Position numbers and translations under genes: made by a program. Source: Fidelibacterota bacterium (GTDB taxonomy: Bacteria > Fidelibacterota > Marinisomatia > Marinisomatales > UBA2128). From it: a stretch of DNA of 12,028 nucleotides. The notes beneath the pieces are model-generated. The model worked only from the letters and a program-made list of their open reading frames with translations. It was not told the origin of the DNA and did no database searches. Within the stretch, counting starts at the first letter, position 1. Each line of letters begins with the position of its first letter. The stretch covers positions 1 through 12,028 of the forward strand of contig JBHHUM010000064.1 of assembly GCA_046861645.1 (NCBI GenBank), given 5' to 3'. Shown one piece after another: positions 79 to 12,028 of the stretch.

Positions 79-1257
79 TCAAATCTCAATTACTTCCTGC
101 TGTAAGGACTCCAGGGCTCCTTTTACGAGAGTGTTTACATCAAGATTTTCCTCTGCTTGCTCAAGTTGTTTTACCGTTGCTTTAGTTGCCGGTTGTCTGG
201 GTAGGAATAGAGCACAACAGTCTTCATCAGGTAAAATAGAAGTCTCATAAGTTCCTATATCTTTAGATTTGTTGACAATTTCCTGTTTATCCATTCCCAC
301 CAGGGGTCGGAGGATGGGAATTGAGGTAACCGCTTCAATCGTCTCCATATTTTCAATAGTTTGGGAAGCCACCTGCCCTAAAGATTCTCCAGTAATCACA
401 GCATGAGCTCTTTCACGACGAGCCAGAGATTCAGCGATACGGAACATAAACCGCCGGTAGAGCAAAATTCTATATTTTTCCGGACACTTCTCGATGACTT
501 CTTCCTGAATTGGAGCCAGTTCAACCAGAAATAATTTCGTTCTGAGCTGATGTTTCAGAAAAATATCGATCACTTTCTGAACTTTTCTAACAGAGGCATC
601 ACTGGTGTAGGGTATAGAGTGAAAATGCAGATAATTGATATGTGCTCCTCGTTTCATCATGAACCATGATGCCACAGGGGAATCAATTCCACCCGAGATC
701 ATGGACAGTACTTTTCCGCCAATACCGACTGGAAGACCTCCGGGACCACTTATCCGTGAAGTATAGACAAAAGCCACATCATTAACCAGATCGATATGAA
801 AATTCACATCTGGATATGAAAGATTCACCTTCTTTCCTAACTTTTCTACTACTGCAGCGCCAATCTCCTCATTCAGTTTCTGAGGTGAAAGAGCTATATT
901 CTTATCGGATCGTCGTGTAGTAATCCGGAAAGATTTTCCAGGTAATTCAGAAATAATTCCTAATGCTTCTGCTTCCAGAATTTCCTTTTTAGCTACCAGG
1001 CGAGTGGCAGGAGCAAAATAGACCAGTCCAAAAGTATTCCGCAAGACTTCATAGATAGTTTTCAGCGATTGCCCGCCCTTATCAGTTAACTCTATGACTA
1101 TCCGTCCCCGAATTGATCGAGTTTCGCGATAACTTCCCGGGCAGGCTGATGTTAAGCCAGCTTTAATATTATCCTTGAGCTTTTTCTCAAAATGTCGGCG
1201 ATTCTTTCCTTTTGTTCCGATCTCTCCATAGTGACAGATAAAATGGGTAGTCTCCAT
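79..1257 (-). CDS. thiI: tRNA 4-thiouridine(8) synthase ThiI, short form (ferredoxin-like + THUMP + PP-loop, no C-terminal rhodanese)
   Basis: N-terminal YGEIGTKGKNR, THUMP-like region (SFRITTRRSDK...VNLSYPD), GPGGLPVG, PP-loop SGGIDSPVA, GESLGQVASQT, RPL and EDCC. Start placed at ATG 1257, which overlaps the upstream stop (TGATG), rather than TTG 1260. Confidence 0.95.
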   Translation of the reverse strand: METTHFICHYGEIGTKGKNRRHFEKKLKDNIKAGLTSACPGSYRETRSIRGRIVIELTDKGGQSLKTIYEVLRNTFGLVYFAPATRLVAKKEILEAEALGIISELPGKSFRITTRRSDKNIALSPQKLNEEIGAAVVEKLGKKVNLSYPDVNFHIDLVNDVAFVYTSRISGPGGLPVGIGGKVLSMISGGIDSPVASWFMMKRGAHINYLHFHSIPYTSDASVRKVQKVIDIFLKHQLRTKLFLVELAPIQEEVIEKCPEKYRILLYRRFMFRIAESLARRERAHAVITGESLGQVASQTIENMETIEAVTSIPILRPLVGMDKQEIVNKSKDIGTYETSILPDEDCCALFLPRQPATKATVKQLEQAEENLDVNTLVKGALESLQQEVIEI

Positions 1258-1679
1258 CAAAATCTACCTGCGAGATGTGCTCCCAAATGTGCGCCATAAA
1301 ATAATATCATTACGGCTACACCACTCAATCCCAGGTAGAAAAAAAGTATCGGCTTTACAGGAAGTTCCGTTTTTTCCTTTATCCGCCAGATTAACAATCC
1401 TATGAACATAAAGCTCGCCAACAACTGTACCACTCCATGGGTTTGAAATAGGGGAATTGGATTCGCCATATGTCCGTAAATAGAATCCGCAATAAATCCG
1501 GTAGCGATAGCAGCCAGAGAGCTGATTACTCCCACTAAAAGACACCACCAACCGGCATAATGAAGAGATTTATTACGAAAAAGGACACCTAAAATATCAA
1601 ACAGAACGCTGGTAGAGAGCAGAGCAATAGGAAAATGGATAAACAGGGGATGAAGCGACGTTATTTCCCAGGGAAACAT
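1257..1679 (-). CDS. DUF2231-like integral membrane protein (about 4 TM helices, several His residues)
   Basis: Family-typical N-terminal LHPLFIHFPIALL, four hydrophobic segments and C-terminal GAHLG. Its stop overlaps the thiI start. Confidence 0.8.
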   Translation of the reverse strand: MFPWEITSLHPLFIHFPIALLSTSVLFDILGVLFRNKSLHYAGWWCLLVGVISSLAAIATGFIADSIYGHMANPIPLFQTHGVVQLLASFMFIGLLIWRIKEKTELPVKPILFFYLGLSGVAVMILFYGAHLGAHLAGRF

Positions 1680-4425: not shown

Positions 4426-5853
4426 TTAATATAATGGCCAAAGCAACTGAGAAACCAATAACAGCACCACGATAGACATAATAATCAACTTACCCCCCGC
4501 TTTTATAAAATCCCCCGATTTCACCAGCCCACTGGAGTGGATGATCATACAGGGTGAAGAAGCGGCTGCCGTCAGATAAGCAAAACTGGAAGCCAGGGCA
4601 GCCGCGAGTCCCATGACGATGGGATCACCCCCCATGTTCAATACAATAGGACCCATCACACCAATAGTAGGGGCGCTACTAAGCAAATTTGCCATGGCTG
4701 CAGTCAGTACTACAGCCACCGATATTCTTACCAAAGGTGTGTCACCACTTACAGATACTACTGCTCCAACAGCTCCTTCACCAATCCATTGACCCAGTCC
4801 TGTAGTATTAATCTGTATACCAATAGAAATAGCTGCACCGAAAAGAAGAATAACACCCCAGTTGGTATTCCGATTGAGATCGGACCACTCCACCAGTCCA
4901 AAAGCCAGATACAGAAAGACACCCGAAAGAGCGATGATACCCAAACCAATTTTATGTCCCAGGAAAACCCACCCTAAAAACACGCCCAAGAAGATAGCAA
5001 TGGCTAAAAATTCTCCGCCTTGCATATTTCCTTCCCTGGTAACCTGCACTTTCAATTTCCGGACAGCCGAATCAAGGACTTTTTGCTTTGGGCGAAATGT
5101 GAAAAGAAGAATAACAACGGTAAGGGGGACTAAAAGTAGGAGGATAGGGTAGGTATATTTCATCCATTCGAGATAGGAAACGGTACCATGGCCAAACTTG
5201 GACCAATAGCCCATCATGATCACATTTCTCCCCCCTCCTGATGGAGTCCCTATGGAACCCATGGCACTGCCATAGGCAATGGAAAAAAGCAATAGTGCTG
5301 CAAGACCTGCCACCTTTTTTGCGTCTGAACTGGTATTCCTAACGAGTACCAAACCCACAGGCATCATCATGGCCGTAACCGTATGCGCACCAACAAAGGA
5401 TGAGAGTAAGGCCGAGATGGCAATGAATCCAGCGGTAATACGCCAGGTTTTGTTGCCCGTCAAACGTATGACACCTAACGCTAATCTCGAATTGAGCCCT
5501 TGCTTCACGATAGAAACAGCTAGCATCAGCGATCCCATTATGAAGAATACGGCATCACTCATAAAATTGGAAGCCACATCATCAGGTTGAGCAATTCCAA
5601 ATACCACTTGAAGAACAAGAATTGTTATGGCAATAGCCGGTAAGGGTACTGGACCGGTGATAATTAGAACCAGGGCCATAATAACGATGATCAGGGTGTG
5701 GTACGCATCAGCAGGACGAGACAGCTCGGACATAGTGGCGGGTGTTGGTAAAAGATACAGAATAATCCCCAAAACGATTGTGAACAGAAGCCAACGCTTC
5801 TGTCGAATCCAGTAGAGAAAATTAGTAATCGCTTGGTTGGAAATAATCGGCAT
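4426..5853 (-). CDS. DASS/SLC13 family divalent anion:Na+ symporter
   Basis: About 12-13 hydrophobic segments with motifs FFIMGSLMLA, LSSFVGAHT, GSIGTPSGGGRN, NWGVILLFGAAISIG and ASSFAYL...SSP, typical of DASS transporters. Confidence 0.88.
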   Translation of the reverse strand: MPIISNQAITNFLYWIRQKRWLLFTIVLGIILYLLPTPATMSELSRPADAYHTLIIVIMALVLIITGPVPLPAIAITILVLQVVFGIAQPDDVASNFMSDAVFFIMGSLMLAVSIVKQGLNSRLALGVIRLTGNKTWRITAGFIAISALLSSFVGAHTVTAMMMPVGLVLVRNTSSDAKKVAGLAALLLFSIAYGSAMGSIGTPSGGGRNVIMMGYWSKFGHGTVSYLEWMKYTYPILLLLVPLTVVILLFTFRPKQKVLDSAVRKLKVQVTREGNMQGGEFLAIAIFLGVFLGWVFLGHKIGLGIIALSGVFLYLAFGLVEWSDLNRNTNWGVILLFGAAISIGIQINTTGLGQWIGEGAVGAVVSVSGDTPLVRISVAVVLTAAMANLLSSAPTIGVMGPIVLNMGGDPIVMGLAAALASSFAYLTAAASSPCMIIHSSGLVKSGDFIKAGGKLIIMSIVVLLLVSQLLWPLY

Positions 5854-5932: not shown

Positions 5933-6334
5933 TTATGATGGTATTCTTTTTCCATCCTTCAAAATAGCCCACTTCCAGATTGGGACTCGTCTCTTCAATT
6001 CAGCAATAAACCATGTCATAGCATCCAGACCCTCCTGGCGATGCACAGACCAGATAGAAACATGCAATGCCACCTCTCCGACCGGGATTTCTCCAATTCT
6101 ATGACGGCAAAACAAATCTTTTATCGGAAATTTCTCCGCTGTTTCCGTAGCTATATTCCTGAGTTCGTTCTCCGCCATACCTGCATAACATTCGTAGAAA
6201 AGACTGCGAATATTCCTACCACTTTGTTTACCTCTGACTCGACCGTTGAATATCAACTCAGCTCCTTCAGTTGATCGATTATCCTTACTGGGAAAAGGAT
6301 CTATTGTACTCGTTACAATTTCGGTTATTATCAT
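5933..6334 (-). CDS. moaE: Molybdopterin synthase catalytic subunit MoaE
   Basis: GA..IFNGRVR, LFYECY..MAE, HRIG.IPVGE, SVHR and LKRRVPIWK motifs. Directly downstream of moaD. Confidence 0.93.
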   Translation of the reverse strand: MIITEIVTSTIDPFPSKDNRSTEGAELIFNGRVRGKQSGRNIRSLFYECYAGMAENELRNIATETAEKFPIKDLFCRHRIGEIPVGEVALHVSIWSVHRQEGLDAMTWFIAELKRRVPIWKWAILKDGKRIPS

Positions 6335-6445: not shown

Positions 6446-6688
6446 TTAACCACCTTGCACTGGAGGAATCAGAGCTACTTCATCGCCTTCCTTTAACTCA
6501 ACCACTTCGGGAGTGTACTTTCGATTTACAGCTACTCTTAGGCTAACATTTTTCAATTGATCACAAGCTCTGGAACGAATATTGTTTTCCACATCTACTG
6601 TAGTTGATCCTTCTTCAAGTTGAAGGATCAGTTCATCCACTCCCAGATGGTATTTCACTTGTGAAAAGCATTTAACTTTAACTTTCAT
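6446..6688 (-). CDS. moaD: Molybdopterin synthase sulfur carrier subunit MoaD (ThiS/MoaD ubiquitin-like)
   Basis: 80 aa, with VAVN and LKEGDEVALIPPVQGG ending in C-terminal Gly-Gly. Lies between moeB and moaE. Confidence 0.95.
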   Translation of the reverse strand: MKVKVKCFSQVKYHLGVDELILQLEEGSTTVDVENNIRSRACDQLKNVSLRVAVNRKYTPEVVELKEGDEVALIPPVQGG

Positions 6689-6858: not shown

Positions 6859-7845
6859 TTACCCTAACTCAATAATATTCGTTTCATGACTTAACCCGTC
6901 ATAGATGAGCAGCTTACCGGTAAGGTTTGGCTCCAATCCCAGAATGATTTTCATGGTCTCCAGGGCTTGAATGTTACCAATAATCCCCGGGAGCATACCA
7001 AGAACACCTGCATCAGTACAATTATCACCAGCCATTGAATGCTCGGGGAACAAGTCAGCATAACGTGGACCACCATTGTGGTTAAATACCGACACCTGTC
7101 CTTCAAAACGGTAAAGTCCACCATAGACCAGTGGGATCAAATGTTCAGCGGCGAACCCATCCAAGATATGACGAACAGTTAGTGAATCTGTAGCATCCAC
7201 GATTATGTCTGTTCCAGTGAGAAGATCATCCCGATTTTTATGAGATAATGGTACATTAATGGTCACAGCTTTTACTTCTGGGTTAATCCTTACGATTCGC
7301 TCTGCTGCTACATCCACCTTGGGTAGACCCACATCGCTGAGTCGATAGAGCGGTTGGCGCTGAAGGTTAGACAGTTCCACCACATCACCATCAATAATCT
7401 GGAGAGTGCCCACACCAGCGGCAGCAAGATATTGAACTACCGGACAGCCAAGCCCTCCCATCCCAACAATAGTCACTTTAGCTGCTGCCAGCGCCAACTG
7501 ACCTTCCACACCTACTTGTGGTAGTACCATCTGCCGGGCATAGCGACTGAAATCCACTTTGGTTTCAACATACTCATTCCAGGCTTGCGCGCCCCCTAAA
7601 AGGCTATATAGGTTTCTACCATTCTTATTCTGAACAAACCTTTCGGTGTTCTGACCAAACTGACAGATGAGTACTACCGGATCATTATCCATGGTGTTAA
7701 TGCCCAGTTCCTCCTCAGGAATAATCTCTGTATCCAGATGAACTAATGGTTCCTGAATCCGCATTTCTTCTGAACGTATATCAACAACCCGGACCGATCT
7801 TTTCTCATCTAACCACTTCTTCAATTGTTCGGGAGTTATAATCAT
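6859..7845 (-). CDS. moeB: Rhodanese-MoeB/ThiF fusion (sulfur-carrier adenylyltransferase with N-terminal rhodanese-like domain)
   Basis: Residues ~1-92 are rhodanese-like (VVDIR, LICQFGQNT, LLGGAQAW). The MoeB core follows: RYARQ, GMGGLG, DGDVVELSNLQRQ, DATD, NCTDAGVLG. ATGA overlap with the moeA stop. Confidence 0.9.
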   Translation of the reverse strand: MIITPEQLKKWLDEKRSVRVVDIRSEEMRIQEPLVHLDTEIIPEEELGINTMDNDPVVLICQFGQNTERFVQNKNGRNLYSLLGGAQAWNEYVETKVDFSRYARQMVLPQVGVEGQLALAAAKVTIVGMGGLGCPVVQYLAAAGVGTLQIIDGDVVELSNLQRQPLYRLSDVGLPKVDVAAERIVRINPEVKAVTINVPLSHKNRDDLLTGTDIIVDATDSLTVRHILDGFAAEHLIPLVYGGLYRFEGQVSVFNHNGGPRYADLFPEHSMAGDNCTDAGVLGMLPGIIGNIQALETMKIILGLEPNLTGKLLIYDGLSHETNIIELG

Positions 7846-9074
7846 GACGATTTCCCTTTAATCGTTAACCATGGTAACAACCGAAAGGTGACAAAACTAT
7901 CAACCGACAACTTCCCATCACCTGGTTCCACTCCAATGATGCAATTGGCCTCCAACGCAGATGATAACATATGTGAACCAGTTTTAGGGGATGGTTTACA
8001 CCACAGAGCTTCATTATCCACCCAAACAGTACCCAATAGGAAACGGTACTTATGTGGATCACGCGGAAATGGGGTTGCCAATTTGGCTTTGAGAAGTTCT
8101 GATTCAGTTCCCATGATTTGCTCAATCGCCAGCCAGACATATTCCATGAATCCGATAAAGGCTGAAACAGGATTCCCAGGTAATCCGAAGACAAGTTTAT
8201 CACCTTTTGTACCAAAAAAGAGGGGCTTTCCTGGTTTTTGAGCCACCTTCCAAAAATGCTGTATCACACCAATTTCTTCTAGAACATCCTTCATGAAATC
8301 AAATCGCCCCATAGAGATACCACCTGTAGAAACCACGATATCACACCTTTCCAGTGCTTTAACAAGAAAGCTGAGGATAGCACTTCTATCATCAGCAACA
8401 ACGTGTTGCATCACAACTTCAGCACCAGCCAGTTCTACCAGATCGGATATGACAGGCAGATTGGAATTGTAGATTTCTCCTTCTTCAAGAGACTCACCAG
8501 GTGCAACCAGTTCATCACCAGTAGCAAAAAGAGCAATTCTAGGACGCTTGGCGACAAGAACTTCTTTATACCCAAAATTGGCCAAAGTACCGATTTCTGC
8601 AGGACCGATTCGAGCGCCTTTGACAATAAGAACCTTGCCACGGTTAATCTCTTCTCCGGCAAAGCGGATGTTTTCACCAGAGCTGGCCTGGCGATAGATA
8701 TCAACGTTATTATTGGACTTAAAACCACTGGTATTCTCAACTATTACGATAGCATCAGCCCCCTCAGGAATGACTGCTCCAGTCATACACTGTACACATT
8801 GACCTGGTTGTATAAATCCTTTGTAGGGATTCCCTGCAGAGGATATACCTTTAATCTCCAACTTTTTTGGCATCTTCTGGGTGGCACCAATTGTATCTTC
8901 AGCTCGAACAGCAAAGCCATCCATGGCAGAATTATCAAACCGAGGCATTGGAAAGGTAGCCCGTACATCCTGCGCCAGAATCCGAGAACTGACTTTCTCC
9001 AGAGGTTCATTCCCAGTCCCTATAGGTCGTGAGGATCTTTGAACTATCGTTTTTGCTTCATGCACAGAAATCAT
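7842..9074 (-). CDS. moeA: Molybdopterin molybdotransferase MoeA (gephyrin E-domain-like)
   Basis: PRFDNSAMDGFAV, MTGA.IP.GADA, TGDEL, NSN, STGGISMG, QKPGKP, LPGNPVSA and GSHMLSS motifs. Confidence 0.96.
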   Translation of the reverse strand: MISVHEAKTIVQRSSRPIGTGNEPLEKVSSRILAQDVRATFPMPRFDNSAMDGFAVRAEDTIGATQKMPKKLEIKGISSAGNPYKGFIQPGQCVQCMTGAVIPEGADAIVIVENTSGFKSNNNVDIYRQASSGENIRFAGEEINRGKVLIVKGARIGPAEIGTLANFGYKEVLVAKRPRIALFATGDELVAPGESLEEGEIYNSNLPVISDLVELAGAEVVMQHVVADDRSAILSFLVKALERCDIVVSTGGISMGRFDFMKDVLEEIGVIQHFWKVAQKPGKPLFFGTKGDKLVFGLPGNPVSAFIGFMEYVWLAIEQIMGTESELLKAKLATPFPRDPHKYRFLLGTVWVDNEALWCKPSPKTGSHMLSSALEANCIIGVEPGDGKLSVDSFVTFRLLPWLTIKGKSS

Positions 9075-9811
9075 ATCATCATCTTCCTGGTTAACAACAC
9101 GATAGCTGTGACAACAACTATACCCATCATTTTCTGAATTGTACGGGGTTGAAATTGGAAAGAACCCATATACGAACCCACTAAACCCCCTAAAAAGACT
9201 GCACCGATAAGCGGAAACATAAAATCTAAATCTAAAGCTCCTCTTTGCATGCGGGCAAAAAGACCTACAGCTGAATTGACCCAGATAAATAGAGTTCCGG
9301 CAGTAGCAGCCTCTTTTTCATCTCCCAATCCCATCATGATGATCACCGGAACGAGAAAAACACCCCCACCAATACCCACTGCTCCCGCTACAAAACCTAA
9401 CACTGCACCCAAAACCAAAGAACTGGGTAGTACCAGTTTTTGAGATACAGAAGTTTTCCAGCGGAGATCCTGAATAGTATAGATACGAAGGGCTACAAAA
9501 ATTAGTGAAATCAGGAGTAAAACGTAGAAAATATTTTTATCTAAATGGAGTATTCCACCTATAAAAGATAATGGAATAGACGTTATTAGGAATGGTAATA
9601 CTAACTGTAACCTAAGATGATTCCCTCGCCAGAAACTGATAAATGCAATCAATGTGACTAAAAGATTCAGTGTAAGAGATGTAGTAGGTATAAGTTGGTA
9701 GTTTATTCCCCAAATTGCCATGAGAGCCGTGTATGATGATCCACCCCCGAGACCAACACTGGAGTAGAGTACTGCTACAAAGAAAAACAGGATCGGCAGA
9801 ATAAAATCCAT
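9071..9811 (-). CDS. TauE/SafE (TSUP) family membrane transporter
   Basis: About 8 TM segments with the internal repeat YSSVGLGGGSSY / GAVGIGGGVFLVP. ATG 9811 overlaps the moaC stop (TGATG), and its own stop overlaps the moeA start (ATGA). Confidence 0.88.
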   Translation of the reverse strand: MDFILPILFFFVAVLYSSVGLGGGSSYTALMAIWGINYQLIPTTSLTLNLLVTLIAFISFWRGNHLRLQLVLPFLITSIPLSFIGGILHLDKNIFYVLLLISLIFVALRIYTIQDLRWKTSVSQKLVLPSSLVLGAVLGFVAGAVGIGGGVFLVPVIIMMGLGDEKEAATAGTLFIWVNSAVGLFARMQRGALDLDFMFPLIGAVFLGGLVGSYMGSFQFQPRTIQKMMGIVVVTAIVLLTRKMMI

Positions 9812-10752
9812 CAATGCCCACCCCCTTGCAAGATATGGAAGGCATGATAAATGCCCGGAATTAGAACATTGAGAGCATCTTTTACTGCACCCGGATTACC
9901 TGGTAAGCAAATGACAATAGCACTTTCAACTACACCTGCAGCTAACCGGGAAAGCATAGCTGTAGGCGTGGAGCTACGACCCCGTGCATGAAGAGCCTGT
10001 TCAATACCTGGCAACCTTGATTCAAATAAGGGTTCCACAATAGAAAGAGTCAGATCACTAACACTGAGTCCTGTACCGCCAGTAGTCACAATCAATTCCA
10101 CACCTTCTTTGATCCATGAATGAATTGTATCTGTTAAGTCCTTAGCACCGTCTGGGAATACAGAATAGTGCTTCACAGAACAACCATCTGCTTGAAATCC
10201 TTCTTTTAATAAAACCCCTGAGACATCCTTTCTCTTCCCTGAAGCGACCCCATCTGAAAGAGTGATAACCCCCACATTTGGTCGAAATGTTGTGGTAAAT
10301 TGGGTACGACCCCCAGTCTTGGATAAGAGCTTGATATCTTTAATCTTCAGGGTCGTATCGACCCCTTTGCACATATCGTAAATAGTAAGGGCCGCTACAG
10401 AAACTGCTGTCAGCGCTTCCATTTCTACACCTGTCGCTTCGTTAGGTTTCCCGGTGGAATGAATACTGATTCCATCCTCCCGGATATCGAAGTAAATATC
10501 AATCCAGGTGAGATTAAGCTGATGACTCAAGGGAATCAGCTCTGAGGTCTTCTTCGCAGCAGCAATACCGGCAATCTTGGCCGTGGTTAGAACATTCCCT
10601 TTAGGAATAGACTTATCCTGGATGGCTGCAATGGTCTCCGGTAACATGACAATCTTTCCAACAGCTTCCGACGTTCTGAAAGTGGCAATTTTATCGGTTA
10701 CATCTACCATATTGATCTTACCTCTCTTATCTAAATGTGAAAAATCTGCCAT
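9811..10752 (-). CDS. moaC: Bifunctional MoaC (cPMP synthase) fused to a MogA/MoaB-like MPT adenylyltransferase domain
   Basis: N-half: FSHLD...MVDV, KGNVL..AKIAGI.AAKKT, LIPLSH, TGVEMEAL, TIYDMCK, KTGG. C-half: VITLSD, DVSG, TTGGTG...DLT, AMLSR, CLPGNP. Confidence 0.94.
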   Translation of the reverse strand: MADFSHLDKRGKINMVDVTDKIATFRTSEAVGKIVMLPETIAAIQDKSIPKGNVLTTAKIAGIAAAKKTSELIPLSHQLNLTWIDIYFDIREDGISIHSTGKPNEATGVEMEALTAVSVAALTIYDMCKGVDTTLKIKDIKLLSKTGGRTQFTTTFRPNVGVITLSDGVASGKRKDVSGVLLKEGFQADGCSVKHYSVFPDGAKDLTDTIHSWIKEGVELIVTTGGTGLSVSDLTLSIVEPLFESRLPGIEQALHARGRSSTPTAMLSRLAAGVVESAIVICLPGNPGAVKDALNVLIPGIYHAFHILQGGGH

Positions 10753-10785: not shown

Positions 10786-11826
10786 TCATCCTCCAATCTG
10801 AGTCATGCTTTCCCGATGGTATCCATTTATTTTTTGTGCTTCCTTACCATCTCTTGGTTTGAGCCACAAGGCCTGTTTGAACAACTGAGCGATTTCTTCA
10901 TCAGTAGCACCTGTCCGTATCAGATCTCTCAAATTGAACTCATAATCAGAATAGAGACAGTTACGGATTTTGCCATCCGCAGTAAGCCTGATACGGTTGC
11001 ATGAACTACACAAACTCCTGGTAAAAGATGGGATCACAGCTATTTTACCTTCATAATCTGGTACCCTAAATACATATTCCTCAGTAGAGCTTCCTGTTGA
11101 TTTACTCAAGTAGGGATAGTGAGCATAAAGTAGCTCAACAATTCTATCTGCACCTAGAAATTTCCCCGTCTTCCATATCTGGTGGGCGTCAAAGGGCATC
11201 AGCTCAATAAAGCGCACAGTGAGATGATTATCCTTGGTTAATTCAACGAAGTCGCTTATCTCATCCTCAATAAAACCACGCATAGCCACCACATTTACCT
11301 TGACTGATGGGAAACCAATTCCGAGAGCAAGTGAAAGTCCTTTCAGCACTTTGTATAGTCCATTTCGTCTAGTTATCTCCAAAAAACGATCATATCGGAG
11401 GGTATCCAAACTGATGTTTATTCCCTCCACACCTACCTCGAGAAGTTCATTAGCCATTTGTGGAAGGAGTAAGCCATTAGTGGTAATGTGAATGGATGTA
11501 ATCTCAGGAACATTGTTGACTTCCCGGAGAAGTGAAATAAGATCTGAATAGATCAAGGGTTCACCACCTGTGAACCGGATCTTCCTTACTCCGAGTGAAG
11601 TAGTTATTGATACCAGTCTCACTAATTCATCTGGGGTTAATCTTTTCTCTTCTGGTTGGAAAACTATACCCTCTTCCGGCATACAGTAGAGACACCGGAA
11701 ATTACACTTTTCGTTTACAGCAATACGGAGATAATTAAAAACTCGACCGAATTGATCGAGGAGGAGATTGCCATTTGTAGATGATACTACTGGCGCAGAT
11801 GAAATTGTCCTTTCACTTTTAATCAT
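10786..11826 (-). CDS. moaA: GTP 3',8-cyclase MoaA (radical SAM)
   Basis: D.FGR...YLRI, CNFRCLYC (CxxxCxxC), RFTGGEP, NISLDTL, RFIELMP, C-terminal CSSCNRIRL...NCL cluster and terminal QIGG. Start placed at ATG 11826, with AAGGAG 5 nt upstream. Confidence 0.97.
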   Translation of the reverse strand: MIKSERTISSAPVVSSTNGNLLLDQFGRVFNYLRIAVNEKCNFRCLYCMPEEGIVFQPEEKRLTPDELVRLVSITTSLGVRKIRFTGGEPLIYSDLISLLREVNNVPEITSIHITTNGLLLPQMANELLEVGVEGINISLDTLRYDRFLEITRRNGLYKVLKGLSLALGIGFPSVKVNVVAMRGFIEDEISDFVELTKDNHLTVRFIELMPFDAHQIWKTGKFLGADRIVELLYAHYPYLSKSTGSSTEEYVFRVPDYEGKIAVIPSFTRSLCSSCNRIRLTADGKIRNCLYSDYEFNLRDLIRTGATDEEIAQLFKQALWLKPRDGKEAQKINGYHRESMTQIGG

Positions 11827-11978
11827 GAAATCTCCTTCCAATGGTGTCTGTCACAGCTTCAAGAGGATCGCATGGACTGACAGGGAGCAAATTCCGGCGT
11901 TTCCCCCGGAACCGTACCGGCCTCATACCTTATCCTTCAAATTTACTGGATTTAGGTAAGTTGGCTTAGAAACTTCAC
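11825..11978 (-). ncRNA. Moco/Wco (molybdenum/tungsten cofactor) riboswitch-family element, P3-less variant
   Basis: Minus strand: P1 GUGAAGUUUCU/GGAGAUUUCAU (11 bp including GU pairs, covering the SD and AU of AUG). P2 GCC..UACCUAAA-UCC..GGA-UAAGGUA..GGC, with a CCUAA/UAAGG tetraloop-receptor-like motif. P4 GGUA-C-GGUUCCGG-G-G[GAAA]C-G-CCGGAAUU-UGCU. P5 CC...GG followed by AAGGAG. It sits directly upstream of moaA, the canonical location. Confidence 0.85.
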
Positions 11979-12028
11979 TTATGAAACTTAACTAATTTTC
12001 TCAGTCAAACACAGGTTAATAGTAGCCC

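Follow-up and report, generated by a model that had tools for sequence, protein, structure and literature searches.

The leader that precedes moaA at 11978-11825 on the minus strand of the window, the 12,028-nt stretch of DNA analysed here, is a real P3-less member of the Moco RNA family, and it is probably not a tungsten switch. The reading we favour, with moderate confidence and by analogy with the E. coli moaA leader, is that of a junction-remodelled Moco RNA whose likely ligand is molybdenum-loaded molybdopterin (Mo-MPT) and which, on binding it, would stop the moaA operon from being translated. The operon runs moaA-moaCB-tauE-moeA-moeB-moaD-moaE on the minus strand, and its features are listed below with the evidence in brackets.

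11825..11978, minus strand: Moco-RNA-family aptamer and expression platform, P3-less, junction-variant subtype (RF01055 full-model alignment, leave-out HMM, covariation in 66 sequences)
11968..11978, minus strand: P1 5′ strand (anti-RBS), with the family-wide core at 11972-11969 (core 98% paired, 3/4 pairs compensatory)
11966..11968, minus strand: J1/2, UAA in the window copy (comparison with the Regulski supplement)
11920..11965, minus strand: P2 with a GAAA receptor of the 11-nt type, 11956-11951 / 11932-11928 (helices 2-4 88-99% paired, with compensatory changes)
11914..11919, minus strand: J2/4, CGGUAC, no P3, with C11914 where canonical copies have the first G of GGG (alignment)
11890..11913, minus strand: P4 with a GAAA tetraloop cap at 11903-11900 (92% paired, 7/10 pairs compensatory)
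11886..11889, minus strand: J4/5 with a 3-nt insert relative to RF01055 (a variable base, then GCU), a signature of the subtype (cmscan in three relatives; absent from the rows of Regulski alignment block 321-480)
11838..11885, minus strand: P5 (CC 11885-11884 with GG 11839-11838) and an optional inserted hairpin, 11883-11878 / 11853-11848 (invariant pairs; hairpin variable in many relatives)
11824..11837, minus strand: J5/1 (1 nt shorter than canonical), P1 3′ strand, RBS GGAG 11835-11832 and moaA AUG 11826-11824 (sequence, cmscan)
10786..11826, minus strand: moaA, GTP 3′,8-cyclase (TIGR02666, 355 bits, above the cut-off of 284)
9811..10752, minus strand: moaC-moaB fusion (NF002947, 393 bits, above the cut-off of 285)
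9071..9814, minus strand: TauE/SafE-family membrane protein, putatively an anion permease (PF01925, E 9e-28)
7842..9074, minus strand: moeA, the only copy found in the genome (NF007960, E 2e-106, below cut-off; one PF03453 match)
6859..7845, minus strand: moeB with an N-terminal extension, rhodanese-like by eye (NF004281/NF006444, below cut-off)
6446..6688, minus strand: moaD (TIGR01682, E 2.5e-13, below cut-off)
5933..6334, minus strand: moaE (NF007959, E 7e-20, below cut-off)

The landmarks named in the original prediction were all present where it had placed them, namely the GGC that closes P2 (11922-11920), the single C that follows (11919), GGUA (11918-11915), the GAAA loop (11903-11900) and a receptor-like motif in P2 formed by CCUAAA (11956-11951) and UAAGG (11932-11928). 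Its claim that there is no P3 also held, since cmscan placed the full RF01055 model on 11983-11816 of the minus strand with the P3 columns as gaps and a long insert in P5. The covariance-model search it had proposed thus left P3 empty, but at a score of 20.3 bits (E 0.57), below the Rfam cut-off of 36 bits. RF01055 was the sole Rfam match within the window, and the single-sequence fold stood out only weakly from shuffled sequences (z -1.70). Because the Rfam score is below the cut-off and the single-sequence fold modest, the reality of the element rests on its relatives. A profile HMM built from 63 relatives, with the window and its two closest look-alikes excluded, recovered the window locus at E 9.8e-22, and the next best match in the genome was at E 0.11; no second Moco RNA was found in the window genome. 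As in other Moco RNAs, P1, P2, P4 and P5 are arranged around a central junction, a GNRA loop on P4 and its receptor in P2 are both present (with docking predicted), and the element lies 5′ of Moco synthesis genes. It is the leader of the moa/moe operon, as had been proposed, with moaA as the next gene and an RBS-sequestering P1. The consensus junction bases of the family, CUCCGAG / GGG / GCCUCCC / GGAAAGG, are not kept and show four systematic changes.

These changes define a subtype. RF01055 matches in 61 genomes of the same order were of two kinds, a canonical kind (GGG...CCUCCC) and a window-like kind (ACGG...GCUCCC) that stands before moaA. Compared with RF01055, the second kind has CGG for GGG, a 3-nt insert before P5, a J5/1 that is one base shorter and an altered J1/2, which is mostly pyrimidine-pyrimidine-A and is C-R-A in known Moco RNAs (Regulski 2008 supplement, PMC2408646). 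The junction changes were found by eye in none of the rows of alignment block 321-480 of that supplement. Membership of this distinct subtype is the reason why RF01055 scores the window element so low, and both the junction changes and the hairpin inserted in the loop of P5 (11883-11848) had been passed over in the original prediction.

A pattern for the second kind, of which moaA was not a part, was scanned over 185,579 GTDB genomes and gave 77 loci, 76 of them genuine and one a chance match without P1 or P2. At 72 of the 77 loci moaA was the next gene within 200 nt; among the remainder, one preceded mobA and then moaA, one ran off its contig within a MoaA-like frame and two lay before a membrane-NTPase gene. 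Marinimicrobia (or synonyms) accounted for 39 loci and Fibrobacteraceae for three. With its own model the subtype was detected in 25 same-order carriers at 92 bits or more, of which 13 reached E 0.01 with RF01055 and 2 passed the cut-off; a relative, L088, passes at 46.4 bits. A sample of the phylum gave a model match in 47 of 150 genomes, a few of these being weak or canonical. Where model matches departed from the pattern, the GRU of J2/4 varied while AC and GCUCCC were kept, one truncated copy aside. Three identical matches in a viral scan lacked P1/P2 and moa genes and were treated as chance.

Several individual loci were unusual. In G020 (L246 / L014, G020:C139:2773-2883), half of a subtype RNA, comprising the P1 5′ strand and P2, is followed by unrelated sequence, and the contig carries moaC some 36 kb from it; the copy looks broken by rearrangement or misassembly. 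In G045 of the same order, moaA follows a canonical copy that contains a P3-like insert (L020:1501-1655), which makes three architectures within one order. Two subtype copies before moaA occur in one MAG (L073 and L118), and L118 is identical to L084/L096, possibly through bin contamination.

Covariation was assessed in 66 sequences, that is, 72 distinct parsed sequences minus six near-duplicates, with seven loci without assigned ends left out. In the 28 named pairs 94.5% of cells were paired, and 19 of the 28 showed compensatory change. None of 500 shuffles paired as highly, in a test inflated by relatedness, and slid controls reached 31-46%; the pattern columns are invariant by construction, so the invariance of the junction is partly built in. 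P1 and P2, both outside the search pattern, covary nonetheless. The fold is thus backed by covariation in P1, P2 and P4, and P5 is invariant, hence without such backing.

The relatives revised two details. P4 had been proposed to begin at GGUA, one C past P2, and the single-sequence fold does predict this, against the column statistics: the two pairs needed were paired at 0.68 and 0.48, with zero compensation, in the 66 aligned members. G11913 and G11912 with 11890 and 11891, by comparison, were paired in 100% and 98% of them. GGUAC belongs to the junction, and the first base of P4 is G11913 (or possibly C11914, paired with G11888). The 11-bp P1, formed by 11978-11968 with 11825-11835 and containing G-U in 4 of its 11 pairs, does bury GGAG (11835-11832) and the AU of the AUG (11826-11824), which starts 5 nt past GGAG. 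Across the family P1 is only 4 bp long (95-100% paired), and its four outermost pairs were 32-45% paired among the 66 members, so the 11-bp P1 is particular to the window genome and its near look-alikes.

Pair probabilities in P1 of the window copy were predicted at 0.85-1.00, which leaves it almost fully closed without ligand, and opening it would cost 8-10 kcal/mol, the fourth highest of 66 (9.9 against a family median of 5.1). No alternative ON-state fold emerged, and forcing the RBS open cost 8.0 kcal/mol. An opening cost of about twice the median could mean that the long P1 keeps the window copy permanently OFF, or that the fold acts without a small-molecule ligand, as a protein-binding site or a fixed damper; the truncated and apparently decayed copy in G020 fits this too, and the case made for the Moco RNA in PMC2408646 rests on genetics, not direct binding. 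We consider it very improbable, since the conserved junction bases are all intact in the window copy, its seven ORFs are open, and, in the manner of end-product sensors, the fold is found in front of synthesis genes and of a candidate importer alike.

The E. coli moaA leader, a Moco RNA with P3 (RF01055; PMC2408646), resembles the window RNA in the P1/P2/P4/P5 layout, the GAAA loop and receptor, the RBS in P1, the moaA target and, likely, the Mo-cofactor signal. The window RNA differs from it in having no P3, CGG for GGG at the base of P4, the 3-nt insert before P5, a J5/1 shorter by 1 nt and an altered J1/2. With the P3-less 'Tuco/Wco' variants (PMC2408646; PMC11725836) it shares the loss of P3, a short J2/4 of similar length and the outer stems, whereas those variants keep GGG...CCU-CCC and AAAGG and the window subtype does not. 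As described in Regulski 2008, 58 of 176 Moco RNAs are P3-less, some of them on MPT-biosynthesis genes, and the E. coli element tells Mo from W and answers to Moco without MobA (PMC2408646). The association of P3 loss with tungsten, on which the original prediction had drawn, stands in that source for 17 of 19 host organisms, but as a correlation only, and deletion of P3 abolished regulation and did not switch the metal (PMC2408646).

The window genome itself offered no sign of tungsten use. It is 94.5% complete, and all genomes here are MAGs, so that absence means 'not found'. We found in it no member of the AOR family, no PF12849 protein (TupA/PstS fold) and therefore no TupA, no ModA/WtpA fold, no MOT1, no sulfite-oxidase family member and no FDH alpha. 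The same searches were positive in control genomes, and TupA, WtpA and AOR were detected elsewhere in the sets. The host thus carries a P3-less RNA with, among the genes found, neither tupA nor wtpA, which together with tupB defined Tuco/Wco hosts in 2008, nor a tungstoenzyme (AOR family, W-FDH), and the proposal that the operon serves W-pterin and marks tungstoenzyme use was not borne out. Metal uptake casts no vote for Mo either, since no dedicated molybdate transporter was found. The genome's clear pterin enzyme is an XdhA-like protein in a three-gene cluster (731 bits against a cut-off of 780), and next to an XdhC-like ORF, identified by eye, lies a MocA-like gene that scores below cut-off. 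The cofactor of XO-family enzymes is generally Mo-MPT or MCD according to PMC13653126, a paper whose abstract mentions 'Mo or W' and which also notes that membership of the AOR family is no proof of tungsten.

Besides NuoG, the only other DMSO-reductase-family match was a QrcB/PsrA-like subunit. It lies in a QrcABCD-like operon (L064:541-6157, C167), and this molybdopterin-type subunit keeps an Fe-S-type Cys motif and is without the ArrA/PsrA ligand-position Cys, so it does not speak for either metal. A tRNA-SeC was called at G000:C148:11913-12006, in a genome without any FDH found; this ARAGORN call, at coordinates similar to those of the leader, belongs to contig C148, not to the window.

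Carriers of the subtype gave a similar picture. We screened 25 same-order carriers and 50 genomes with pattern hits (the 77 loci minus the chance match, one second copy, 13 already covered and 12 near-duplicates), of which two overlap (G011, G018), leaving 73 distinct genomes. Any tungsten marker (AOR family, TupA or WtpA) was present in 5 of these 73, as against 17 of the 19 Tuco/Wco hosts of 2008 (PMC2408646), a comparison for which we give no p-value because the carriers are MAGs and related, not independent. The AOR family was found in four of the 73 (with no NCBIfam match for the two scanned) and TupA in three, and in a 68-genome subset WtpA was found in one and ModA in five. Neither AOR nor TupA was found in any of the 25 same-order carriers, of which 20 are 90% complete or better. 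PF12849 matches inspected were PstS-like or unclassified, bar the three TupA, and weak PF13531 matches looked like iron or other binding proteins, one classified by HMM and the rest by eye. An FDH-alpha-like gene occurred in 8/73 carriers, three over the cut-off, the match being silent on the metal. XO-family enzymes were found in 54 of 68 carriers, with no match in the other 14.

A tungsten-cofactor-specific switch, as first proposed, is therefore improbable, although the missing P3 and the host record of 2008 favour it, the window genome is not closed, and E. limosum has five P3-less copies, with P3-less copies there regulating tungsten genes (PMC11725836). Against it stand the absence of AOR, TupA, WtpA and FDH among the genes found in the window genome, the scarcity of markers among carriers, a junction unlike every 2008 row compared, and the canonical P3-less copies of the same order, whose genomes are without AOR or TupA in five of seven cases. 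The five marker-positive carriers, two of which (G062 and G092) hold both TupA and an AOR-family gene, keep alive a different alternative, that the subtype is indifferent to the metal and senses MPT or Mo- or W-loaded MPT, in line with the shared pre-metal steps of the pathway. Its main target, moaA, acts upstream of metal insertion (72/77 loci), P3-less RNAs on MPT-biosynthesis genes were already noted by Regulski (PMC2408646), and recognition rests on the organic part of the cofactor according to a review (PMC11672702). We regard metal indifference as doubtful, given that the E. coli RNA can tell the two metals apart and that the subtype also occurs in MoeA-less genomes (4/4 tested), where metal-free MPT would be useless.

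These MoeA-less genomes belong to a family of relatives, f24, in which, at 12 of 12 loci fetched, the gene after the subtype encodes a protein of about 580 aa that combines a membrane domain with an NTPase_1 domain. This fused gene, at L244:815-2566 and the 11 other f24 loci, is a candidate importer of finished cofactor. MoaC was absent from 21 of 22 f24 genomes with a model match; XO-family enzymes were present in 5/5 and AOR in 0/5, and two to four nucleotidyltransferases classified from f24 genomes were MobA-like and MocA-like. The membrane-NTPase protein is homologous to split genes of G019 that follow a TonB-dependent receptor and are headed by a canonical P3-less copy; the module was not found in the window genome. 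If it does import cofactor, the ligand would be metal-loaded and nucleotide-free. Pterin already loaded with metal is the only form that would serve a MoeA-less cell, and this points to Mo-MPT.

Canonical P3-less copies were found in seven same-order genomes (G004, G006, G017, G019, G021, G031, G033) at 50-75 bits on RF01055. Whereas the window subtype mostly precedes moaA, these copies (L236:282-4813, L238:447-2708, L239:431-3296, L240:418-2098, L241:9018-10225) precede TonB-dependent receptors, Pfam-less membrane proteins, a membrane-NTPase and mobA-like genes, some of the targets being homologous to that of f24. MoaC was found in none of the seven and XO-family enzymes in all of them, which suggests cofactor salvage; AOR was present in two and TupA in none.

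A rebuilt pocket might also read another pterin form, most plausibly the MCD of XO-family enzymes. Junction changes that switch the ligand are a known theme among riboswitch variants, the subtype has four such changes relative to RF01055, the XO family dominates among carriers, and MocA-like genes are present. We nevertheless find this unlikely, because 14 of 68 carriers have no XO-family match and because the subtype and the canonical P3-less copies control homologous membrane/NTPase genes, suggesting a shared ligand. A bolder version of the favoured Mo-MPT reading, which we put forward tentatively and with less confidence, is that the subtype is a third Moco-family riboswitch class, with a rebuilt Mo-molybdopterin pocket and no P3, in which junction bases rather than P3 would set the choice of metal and which, in Marinimicrobia without MoaC and MoeA, would gate a membrane-NTPase importer of finished molybdenum cofactor.

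For the window RNA, the mechanism that would go with Mo-MPT binding is as follows. The GAAA loop of P4 is predicted to dock on the receptor in P2, which would pre-organise the four-way junction of P1, P2, P4 and P5. Cofactor bound at the junction would then keep P1 closed over the RBS and, in the window genome, also over the first two bases (AU) of the start codon, so that plentiful cofactor would leave MoaA and the coupled downstream genes untranslated, an OFF logic borrowed from E. coli moaA.

The end of the contig shares a 55-nt overlap with contig C44, on which a co-oriented dsrE2 ends about 60 nt before P1, followed by a divergent mobA-like gene. No sigma-70 promoter was found in 11700-12028, and the only terminator-like hairpin lay inside moaA (11760-11742) and was not above chance. 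Sulfur-related neighbours are found on both sides, with thiI and an egtC-like gene downstream (window 79-1260, 1695-2552) and dsrE2 (L063:69-605) just upstream of the leader. Because no ModA, TupA or MOT1 was found, other routes of metal entry were considered; the metal may enter through a CitMHS+TrkA-C permease 4 kb upstream (L063:3974-5770, C44), which we take to resemble PerO, a DASS symporter 80 nt past moaE (window 4426-5853) or the TauE protein of the operon.

In its proposed mode of action the element resembles a Moco riboswitch, yet it scores under the Rfam cut-off and departs from the consensus of the junction, and we therefore file it as a variant, apparently undescribed, of a known family. 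No description of the subtype, or of Moco riboswitches in Marinimicrobia, was found in the literature searched; subscription journals, the current Rfam seed and the supplements of PMC3766115 (for example the Caldithrix riboswitch figure) lay outside the search and could hold the subtype. Sequence-based assignments of tungsten regulation continue to lean on the absence of P3 (PMC11725836), and the subtype supplies many natural P3-less RNAs whose junction changes are defined and whose genomes appear, for the most part, to use molybdenum only. Four small swappable elements make the basis of Mo versus W recognition testable. As the Rfam cut-off misses most members, Moco regulation is under-annotated in this marine lineage, and in relatives that seem unable to make the cofactor the subtype RNA marks out a gene that may import it in finished form.
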